From contig OZ255842.1 of NCBI GenBank assembly GCA_965277805.1, forward strand, positions 1,088,001 to 1,152,000: a DNA stretch of 64,000 bases, read 5' to 3'. A program made the translations under genes and the position numbers. The DNA comes from Candidatus Lustribacter sp. (GTDB taxonomy: Bacteria; Vulcanimicrobiota; Vulcanimicrobiia; Vulcanimicrobiales; Vulcanimicrobiaceae). This document shows, in pieces, positions 21,513 to 23,201 of the stretch; the stretch's first letter is position 1; every line of letters starts with the position of its first letter. The notes beneath the pieces are model-generated. The model did no database searches. It was not told the DNA's origin and saw only the letters and a program-made list of their open reading frames with translations.

Positions 21513-23201
21513 ATGTCGGTTTTACTGTCATACCCGGGCGTCTACGTAGAAGAACTTCCGAGCGCCGTGCATGCCATCACGGGGGTGCCGACATCGATTC
21601 CGGCGTTCGTCGGACGCGCGCTGCGCGGCCCGACCGACACGGCAACGCCGGTCTCCAGCTACGCCGATTTCGGCCGTCAGTTCGGCGGCCTCGCCGTCGG
21701 CTACCCGATGAGCTACGCCGTGCGCGATTTCTTCGCCAACGGCGGCGGCCAAGCGATCATCGTGCGCGTCTGGTCCGGCGGCCCCGCGTCGTCTTCGTCG
21801 TCATCGAGCTTCAGCAGCTCGTCGCTCTCGAGCGCATCGTCGAGCAGCGGCTCGGGCTTCTCGCTGCCGCAGCAAGCCGACGGCATCGCGCGCACGAACG
21901 AGACCGACCCCGACACGATCGGGCTGGCCCTCCAAGCGCAGAGCCCCGGAACGTGGGGCAACAAGGTCACGGTGGCGGTGTCGATTCCCTCGCCGCCGAT
22001 CGACGCGCAAACGGCCCTCAATCTCGGCTACAGCGATCCCGCGCAGCTCTTCACGCTGCTCGTCACCGACACGGGCTCAGGCACGAGCGAGACGATTCGC
22101 AACGTGTCGGTCGTGGCCGGGCAGCGCCGCCTCGATCAGGTGCTGCTGATGGAGTCGCAGCTCGTGCGGGTGCAGATCGATCCATCGACGCTCAAGCCGA
22201 TCTTGCCCGCGACGGCCCCTGGTGCCTCGAGCACGATTTCGTTGAGCGGCGGCGGCGACGGCGACATCGTCACCGATCCGACCGTCTACGTGCCGGCCGA
22301 CGGCAGCAGCAAAGGCATCTACGCGCTCGAGTACGCCGGCATCTTCAACTTGCTCGCGATTCCGCCCGACAGCGCCACGCCCGACAGCATGCTGTGGACG
22401 TCGTCGGGCGCGCTCTACACCGGCGTCTACCCCTTGGCCCTTGCGTACTGTAAGCAGAAACGCGCGGTGCTGATCGTCGATCCACCCTACGATTGGTTGA
22501 CCGTGCAAGACGCGAAAGGCGGACCGGGTTCGCTCAACCTTGCGGCCGACGGGGATTTCGGCGCGCTCTACTTCCCCATGCTGGTCGAGGCCGACCCGTT
22601 GCGTCAAGGTCAGCTCAACACCTATCCGCCCTCGGGAGCGATCTGCGGCGTCATCGCAGCCACCGACAACGCGCGCGGCGTATGGAAGGCCCCGGCCGGC
22701 ATCGACGCGGGCTTCATCGGCGTGCAAGATCTTGCGGTTTCGCTGAGCGACGCCGATAGCGGTACGCTCAATCCGACCGGAACGAACTGCCTGCGCAATT
22801 TCCCGTTCACCGGCAACGTGATATGGGGGGCGCGCACGATGCGCGGCGCCGACCAGCTCACCGACCAGTACAAATACTTGCCGGTCCGGCGCTTGGCGCT
22901 CTACCTCGAACTGAGCCTGCAGCAAGGGCTGCAATGGGTGGTGTTCGAGCCGAACGACGAGCCGCTGTGGTCGTCGATCCGTCTCAACGTGCAGTCGTTC
23001 ATGCAGGAGCTGTTCAAGAAAGGCGCCTTCGCCAGCACGACGCCCGCCACGGCGTATCTCGTCAAATGCGACAGCGAGACCACGACGTCGACCGATCAAG
23101 CCAACGGCGTCGTAAACATCCTCGTCGGCTTCGCGCCGCTCTATCCGGCGGAGTTCGTCGTTTTGCAGATCCAACAACTCGCCGGACAGACGGGGAGCTA
23201 A
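21513..23201 (+). CDS. eCIS contractile tail sheath protein (Afp2/3/4-like)
   Basis: YPGVYVEE, PPSGAICG, RGVWKAPAG, WGART, YLPVRRL, WVVFEPNDEPLW, PAEFV; GGAG RBS before ATG 21513. Confidence 0.96.
   Translation: MSVLLSYPGVYVEELPSAVHAITGVPTSIPAFVGRALRGPTDTATPVSSYADFGRQFGGLAVGYPMSYAVRDFFANGGGQAIIVRVWSGGPASSSSSSSFSSSSLSSASSSSGSGFSLPQQADGIARTNETDPDTIGLALQAQSPGTWGNKVTVAVSIPSPPIDAQTALNLGYSDPAQLFTLLVTDTGSGTSETIRNVSVVAGQRRLDQVLLMESQLVRVQIDPSTLKPILPATAPGASSTISLSGGGDGDIVTDPTVYVPADGSSKGIYALEYAGIFNLLAIPPDSATPDSMLWTSSGALYTGVYPLALAYCKQKRAVLIVDPPYDWLTVQDAKGGPGSLNLAADGDFGALYFPMLVEADPLRQGQLNTYPPSGAICGVIAATDNARGVWKAPAGIDAGFIGVQDLAVSLSDADSGTLNPTGTNCLRNFPFTGNVIWGARTMRGADQLTDQYKYLPVRRLALYLELSLQQGLQWVVFEPNDEPLWSSIRLNVQSFMQELFKKGAFASTTPATAYLVKCDSETTTSTDQANGVVNILVGFAPLYPAEFVVLQIQQLAGQTGS

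Follow-up and report, generated by a model that had tools for sequence, protein, structure and literature searches.

TibC, a WaaC-like enzyme of the GT-B type, transfers heptose to Ser residues of its partner protein, according to the relevant part of PMC4358343. Mycobacteriophage virions bear glycans as well, attached where the capsid subunits and the tail tube subunits have their C-termini (Freeman et al. 2023, Cell Host Microbe 31:1216, as cited in PMC12619734 and PMC12582341). For Streptomyces coelicolor Cis2 (8bky, 8bl4; PMC10066040, in part) and the Afp/PVC-type eCISs, sheath glycosylation was not found in the passages of the literature that were searched. Runs of Ser are also described in Saccharophagus/Cellvibrio carbohydrases, as flexible linkers that separate the modules of secreted enzymes (PMC2386152, in part). 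The eCIS presented here has the sheath fold and operon type of Cis2 and the Afp/PVC-type systems, but its sheath bears a Ser tract that Cis2 lacks. Although flexible like the carbohydrase linkers, this tract lies in the subunit of a structural polymer and tracks a glycosyltransferase-like gene, and its location in a sheath subunit sets it apart from the polyserine-linker class. With mycobacteriophage virions it shares a tail-type particle whose repeated subunits are putative glycan carriers, although the eCIS is cell-encoded and capsid-less, has its Ser in an internal sheath loop and in loops of two other proteins, and is accompanied by a GT9-like enzyme. A C-terminal site of the mycobacteriophage type is not seen, the tract being internal, the tube devoid of a Ser tail and a capsid absent. 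The reading that we favor, and consider fairly probable, is that the Ser loops are putative O-glycosylation acceptors for the GT9-like enzymes of the locus itself.

The window, i.e., the whole stretch of 64,000 nucleotides that was analyzed, bears sheath, tube, spike/PAAR, gp25 and baseplate-J genes within one operon, together with genes for Pvc16 (PF14065), an AAA ATPase (PF00004) and a DUF4157 protein (PF13699). These make up a complete contractile injection system of the Afp/PVC type (eCIS superfamily). To judge by the names of GT_B paralogues, the host probably belongs to Vulcanimicrobiota (Eremiobacterota). The sheath gene is located at 21513..23201 on the + strand and encodes a 562 aa protein that scores above the cut-off for PF17482 and just below that for PF04984. 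It is followed on the same strand by the core genes (23208..37015, annotated by Pfam and NCBIfam) for the tube, Pvc16 cap, AAA ATPase, CIS tube, VgrG-related protein, spike OB, PAAR-like protein, gp25 and two baseplate proteins. After the baseplate genes comes a conserved ORF (37012..39216, +) without a match in protein families or the PDB, probably structural by its position, which contains Ser-rich loops at 38395-38430 and 38641-38670. Next are a DUF6519 and beta-helix protein (39241..42171, +, Pfam), probably fibre- or spike-like, with a poly-Ser loop at 41251-41289, and the eCIS core protein with DUF4157 (42329..44314, +, PF13699, E-value = 2e-20), a putative cargo. By an impression of its motifs, the C-terminal region of this DUF4157 protein looks nuclease-like. 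A BTAD regulator of the locus (PF03704) is encoded on the - strand at 45856..46656, and BTAD genes flank related loci as well. Pfam detected none of the capsid, portal and terminase head-gene families among the 23 ORFs in 18116-47634. No promoter-like site was found in 18000-21600, nor any terminator-like site between the glycosyltransferase-like gene GT_B and the sheath gene. Immediately upstream of the GT_A gene, a gene with a GmrSD-type restriction nuclease N-terminal domain is located at 18116-19210; none stands beside GT_A in related loci. Elsewhere in the window, positions 2001-8000 form a low-GC island (52-57% vs. ~65%) for which the codon model gave no gene calls.

The best PDB sequence match of the sheath is S. 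coelicolor Cis2 (8bky, E-value = 2e-63), and the closest solved sheaths belong to the cytoplasmic Streptomyces CIS and an archaeal T6SS-like CIS. An AlphaFold model built on 100 alignment rows (pLDDT 74 overall) matches the fold of 8bl4 with Z 26.6 and an rmsd of 2.8 A. The poly-Ser loop (21789..21857, +; sheath residues 93-115) lies at the entry to domain 3 and was annotated as a putative O-glycosylation acceptor from its codons, its conservation among homologues and its low pLDDT. In the alignment with Cis2, the tract comes right after the final strand of the conserved N-terminal block, its counterpart in Cis2 being an Ala/Gly-rich loop, and residues 94-110 are mostly coil with pLDDT <50, flanked by confident segments. 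In Cis2, domain 3 lies on the outside of the sheath and escaped resolution because of its flexibility (PMC10066040, in part); it is the most variable domain, domains 1 and 2 facing inward (a passage of PMC11566945), and it has been picked as an exposed antibody epitope (a passage of PMC12998442). The original prediction had placed the tract after the N-terminal block in a surface-facing region, and both the homology to Cis2 domain 3 and the low-confidence coil segment support it. Because exposure is deduced from homology to Cis2 domain 3, the loop is predicted to face outward.

The codon count confirmed that Ser occupies 17 of the 20 in-frame codons at 21789-21848 (residues 93-112) in the mixture first described (TCG x9, AGC x6, TCT x1, TCA x1), the tract being broken by Phe, Leu and Ala; when it is extended through 21857, Ser accounts for 18/23 codons. 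No other 20-mer is as rich in Ser in the 5,155 rough gene calls that a hexamer model gave for the whole 5.53-Mb genome, the runner-up holding 10 Ser, and with Ser making up 5.4% of the proteome the binomial chance is ~3e-19 per 20-mer. Only two of the 5,155 gene calls reach at least 9 Ser in 10 residues, namely the sheath and the DUF6519 gene (39241-42171), both in the eCIS locus, while the conserved ORF at 37012-39216 is one of four genes with 7 Ser in 10. Outside the eCIS, an unannotated envelope-type ORF at 50555-52222 of the window, AsmA-like by impression, also has a short Ser-rich loop (7/10). The stretch is identical in contigs of two public runs, both made from a single sample that may be the source, and a second study supplies related contigs over most of the tract. 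Since the public contigs span the stretch unchanged and those of the second study cover most of it, and since orthologues carry the tract too, an assembly artefact or homopolymer error was rejected. Recent DNA slippage was rejected as well, as Tandem Repeats Finder showed no tandem array over the tract, its sole match being a 20-bp, 2.2-copy repeat at the tract start. An antisense acidic ORF (21713-22021) was regarded as a shadow of the TCG run, because it is the sheath frame that is conserved. The Ser tract is a real, selected feature.

Conservation was studied in 120 listed homologues. Those of the clade (P0001-P0026) are 61-79% identical to the query, P0027 being a fragment without the region. 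Each of the 26 clade sheaths that cover the loop has 11-36 Ser there, within 25-62 residues (53% Ser overall), and the core motif S-S/T-S-S-hydrophobic-small-small is retained in 19 of them. The 93 other homologues, which include five clade-like fragments without the loop, have no Ser tract (maximum 6 Ser in 10), and the non-clade loops are mostly short, or rich in Pro, Ala/Gly or Asn/Asp. With a loop segment of 60-97 residues in the clade against ~28-40 in most non-clade homologues, the alignment bears out the proposal that the tract is an insertion. Across eight orthologous DNA sequences (that of the window included), the Ser codons show synonymous changes, sometimes between TCN and AGY, and the range of tract lengths indicates that indels act on it too. 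Selection on Ser had also been proposed, from the codon mix; this argument carries less weight, since the mix by itself mirrors genome-wide Ser usage (TCG 46%, AGC 31%), but selection itself is upheld by the conservation in the clade. A quick IQ-TREE of 67 sheaths with SH-aLRT support, from which the Ser windows were removed, gathered the 24 clade rows that it contained on a single branch (SH-aLRT 95), to which two Pro/Thr-loop sheaths are sister. The clade spans several phyla and includes Paraburkholderia pallida, Paraburkholderia sp. 35.1 and a Steroidobacteraceae MAG. Outside both the clade and the group formed by genomes G371 and G169 stands L142, a third sheath with a Ser tract, on a 2.5 kb contig.

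The sheath loop readily takes up low-complexity inserts of any kind, which in other sheaths are Pro-, Ala/Gly- or Asn/Asp-rich. Given this tolerance, the informative part is the Ser composition that tracks the enzyme. A single first-position change could turn Pro, Ala and Gly codons into TCN/AGC and a second-position change Thr ACC into AGC, routes which would explain how a Pro/Ala/Gly loop became a Ser tract of mixed codons. The same tolerance lends itself to another explanation, which we regard as unlikely, namely that the loop is an unmodified flexible hydrophilic spacer in which Ser was fixed once, the glycosyltransferase genes being mere passengers of a mobile locus. That other sheaths hold different inserts there, that loop size varies, that the clade represents a single event and that interdomain poly-Ser linkers are known (part of PMC2386152) all agree with it; yet it does not account for Ser loops that occur in three genes of the locus at positions unrelated to one another. 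The loops of the conserved ORF at 37012-39216 are insertions in 4/4 clade orthologues aligned and absent from 3/3 non-clade homologues. That of the DUF6519 protein is Ser-rich in the genome of the window and in G350 and G167, Ala/Pro/Lys-rich in G021, and was not seen in the shorter ORF of G104. In loci L203-L212 (G350, G167, G104, G354), several eCIS genes are split by frameshifts, probably through sequencing errors or decay.

Three glycosyltransferase-like genes accompany the eCIS. The first, GT_A (19225..20229, +; 334 aa), is located two genes upstream of the sheath and is GT9-like. Its membership by PF01075 is marginal (22.3 bits vs. a cut-off of 22), as is that of GT_C (23.5 bits), while in the Atlas test of both proteins 71-76% of cluster members carried PF01075 at score 0.99. 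Gly13-Asp14 of GT_A is >90% conserved and aligns weakly with the Gly-Asp of the GT9 structure 3tov (E-value = 1.6); in HepI, D13 is catalytic (PMC5713226, in part). The five Cys residues toward the C-terminus (C256, C257, C262, C283, and C293) are all conserved. Against the PDB, the GT_A profile retrieved no solved protein glycosyltransferase, the best match being WaaF (E-value = 0.26). GT_A resembles the BAHT enzymes (TibC, AAH; PMC4358343, in part) in its putative relation to LPS heptosyltransferases and its place beside a putative protein substrate, and it would act as TibC and AAH do, which put heptose on Ser of a protein encoded nearby. Membership in the TibC/BAHT group was nevertheless rejected, since PDB searches recovered no TibC chain, whether run with the GT_A sequence (to E 1) or with two profiles (to E 5 and E 10). 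Moreover, BAHT has an N-terminal beta-barrel (residues 1-97), as given in the corresponding section of PMC4358343, whereas GT_A has no barrel, its putative catalytic Asp being residue 14. The Cys-rich insertion in the C-lobe of TibC, with its four-Cys iron finger (C339/342/358/370), may have a counterpart in the five C-terminal Cys of GT_A, whose spacing differs. The neighborhoods differ too, the BAHT gene standing beside an autotransporter and GT_A beside eCIS genes.

The second gene, GT_B (20226..21434, +), encodes a further GT9-like protein, itself divergent. Its start codon shares the ATGA with the stop codon of GT_A, and 78 bp separate its end from the sheath gene. Pfam returned no match for it, although a distant homologue (P0513) has PF01075 and the Atlas gives a lead at 19% of one cluster, and comparison of the GT_A and GT_B profiles gave a probability of 0.6%. 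Orthologues with 70-72% identity occur at the locus in 5/5 other clade genomes of the phylum sample. An unannotated paralogue (~40% identical, e.g., G350:C2:1726244-1727284) is also widespread, 154/296 family genomes matching GT_B. Because this paralogue is found in about half of the host-family genomes, the GT_B family is not poly-Ser-specific, and the paralogue is likely an envelope glycosyltransferase. The third gene, GT_C (44311..45867, +; PF01075, PF13578; phrog_24975, E-value = 6e-153), is an accessory fusion of a GT9-like domain and a methyltransferase, ATGA-coupled to the DUF4157 gene at the end of the operon; among related clade stretches only G167 has it. PDB searches with GT_B and GT_C gave nothing significant, and queries with GT_C and the GmrSD gene matched no viral loci. 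The GT_A family comprises 1,122 cluster representatives at an E-value of 1e-30 or better. Many homologues in P0244-P0393 are long fusions (600-1,350 aa), in some of which the GT_A domain occurs twice.

Characterized GT9 members act on the LPS core (PMC5713226, in part), databases name the GT_A homologues LPS heptosyltransferases and GT_B has its widespread host paralogue, all of which would suit enzymes that modify the producer's own LPS or surface receptor for self-protection, with the Ser loops either unrelated or glycan-binding. We consider this quite improbable, as the host owns a separate GT9/GmhA/RfaE cluster at 4.233-4.241 Mb of the genome, whose GmhA-like and RfaE-like genes both score just below their family cut-offs, and as GT_A follows Ser runs rather than CISs, being found in none of 157 other sheath loci with flanks of ~10 kb and not in 43 of the 44 genomes with a tract-less sheath.

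These counts come from two surveys. In a phylum sample of 401 genomes, 51 of them with a sheath and 350 without a sheath match, sheaths were scored positive at ≥8 Ser in 10 residues, i.e., at least 8. GT_A was present in 7/7 genomes with a Ser-tract sheath, 1/44 with a tract-less sheath and 11/350 without a sheath, and the other clade genomes of the sample carry it at the locus in 5/5 cases (78-82% identity). It lies upstream of the sheath in G000, G021, G167, G350, G354, and L095, and 22 kb downstream in G104. Among all 45 non-clade sheath genomes checked, some of which have truncated contigs, G371 is the only one with a poly-Ser sheath, its GT_A being encoded on other contigs (in trans). In G371, poly-Ser replaces the poly-Pro/Ala that its 61%-identical sister G169 has in the same loop, and GT_A was not found in G169 (94% complete); a mere spacer would leave this swap unexplained. 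The exceptions are G134, which has two GT_A copies and a tract-less sheath, and the second sheath of G167, which has no tract. Only two independent origins come with genome context, because six of the seven positives represent one inherited clade; L142 adds one without such context. In three named database records, the accessions of sheath and GT_A are 15 apart in P. pallida, 17 in Paraburkholderia sp. 35.1 and 17 in the Steroidobacteraceae MAG. Sheath and GT_A distances are correlated (Mantel rho 0.44, p = 0.005, 11 pairs). Equal-sized contigs for the sheath and for GT_A/GT_B matches were seen for 9/16 clade vs. 0/39 non-clade contigs of at least 10 kb, among the best 120 matches per enzyme; two short non-clade contigs matched GT_B by chance, and one short clade match (6502), which may also be due to chance, is discordant between the trees. 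In the second survey, GT_A was found in none of 157 other cellular sheath loci among the matches listed in the genome and metagenome scans; these are mostly non-clade with ~10 kb flanks, and at least 5 kb of upstream sequence is available in 78/159 loci, so that a glycosyltransferase at the far end is possible.

That G371 has its tract without any glycosyltransferase gene in the 60 kb around the sheath would fit yet another explanation, in which the Ser residues are modified otherwise, by phosphorylation or a host O-glycosylation system, and GT_A acts downstream or on a cargo. Runs of Ser are generic hydroxyl acceptors. We hold this to be very improbable, since kinase families are absent among the 23 locus ORFs scanned and GT_A is the sole gene that consistently accompanies the tracts.

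The association of GT_A with Ser runs extends beyond eCISs. Under a strict rule (≥9 Ser in 12, i.e., at least 9, in the longest ORF covering the site, within ~10 kb of GT_A), a poly-Ser ORF was detected in 44/80 viral loci, or 26 of the 48 first representatives after 60% clustering, leaving 36/80 without one. Among cellular loci outside eCISs, 8 of the 13 covered have such an ORF, two contig-start matches having been left out. The controls were near zero, with 0/69 random viral loci (shorter, with a mean of 13 kb vs. 18 kb), 2/74 viral sheath loci, 1/20 distant tiles of GT_A-bearing genomes, 2/157 other sheath loci (one being L142) and 3/276 tiles of the window genome (two being the eCIS locus). 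These frequencies tell against the spacer explanation. Given the viral and cellular loci and their controls, the GT_A family goes along with Ser runs in proteins that are otherwise unrelated, which fits what is expected of an enzyme and its acceptor tag, and several unrelated acceptor families seem to use GT_A. In mycobacteriophages, phage-encoded glycosyltransferases reportedly add the virion glycans to Ser. PHROGs matched 5 of the 50 viral poly-Ser ORFs scanned (76 in total), four of them to head, tail or fibre families, while Pfam named 0/16 Ser-rich ORFs beside non-eCIS GT_A. In L311:3039-4400, a viral major head protein (phrog_283) has a C-terminal poly-Ser tail ~6 kb from a GT_A gene, and is the closest analogue here of the mycobacteriophage virion glycosylation case. 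In the eCIS-less relatives L223-L235 (e.g., L229:2648-6052, L227:9070-10203, L231:10970-12109), GT_A adjoins Ser or Ser/Asp-repeat proteins that match no Pfam family. A contig of the viral collection with 35% GC (L257:8599-9813) carries GT_A, a close GT_B homologue and a 1,262-aa Ser-rich ORF, and is a possible source or recipient of the GT_A/GT_B two-gene cassette. GT_A had no match in 50,697 GenBank phage records or in PLSDB plasmids, and since those phage records hold none, its examples are mostly uncultured.

Under the favored reading, in which the enzymes of the locus use the loops as acceptors, the particle is likely to bear a coat of sugars, because Ser loops on the sheath and other locus proteins travel with a sugar-transferase-like gene. 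GT_A, as a soluble cytoplasmic enzyme, would start the glycan on Ser hydroxyls with the sugar of a nucleotide-activated donor, for which ADP-heptose is a plausible candidate, as the host has the GmhA-like and RfaE-like genes as well as separate LPS GT9s. GT_B might then extend the glycan or serve other sites, and GT_C, where present, could add or methylate a further sugar. The sheath subunits would be glycosylated before or during assembly, and the loop, repeated on every sheath subunit, would give rise to a glycan brush. Such a hydrated coat could shield the released particle from proteases, aggregation and sticking to soil surfaces. This shield is our best guess at the purpose, and a less probable one than the chemistry itself. 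We lean only slightly toward the broader proposal of a multi-phylum CIS lineage with a dense O-glycan coat along the sheath and tip, laid down by a dedicated poly-Ser glycosyltransferase family common to many uncultured phages, in which cells that gain the enzyme could convert a Pro/Ala loop to a Ser tag.

A search of the full-text literature, with subscription papers and supplements outside its scope, returned no glycosylated CIS shell and no pair of GT9 enzyme and poly-Ser tag. In the main text of three eCIS papers, as far as it was covered by a term check, 'serine' does not occur (PMC10598620, PMC12961389, PMC8213781), and glycosyl terms are used for an effector only in the first, not at all in the second and once in the third; the supplementary domain tables may list GT9. 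If the broader proposal is true, this would be the first CIS with glycans, and a widespread poly-Ser/GT9 system would gain its first cultured model. Since Paraburkholderia pallida is cultured, the enzyme-substrate pair is directly testable, and the eCIS copies in cultured Paraburkholderia are a ready pair for probing the function of the GT_A family. The coat would bear on the stability, target choice and immune visibility of machines that are now engineered for protein delivery.
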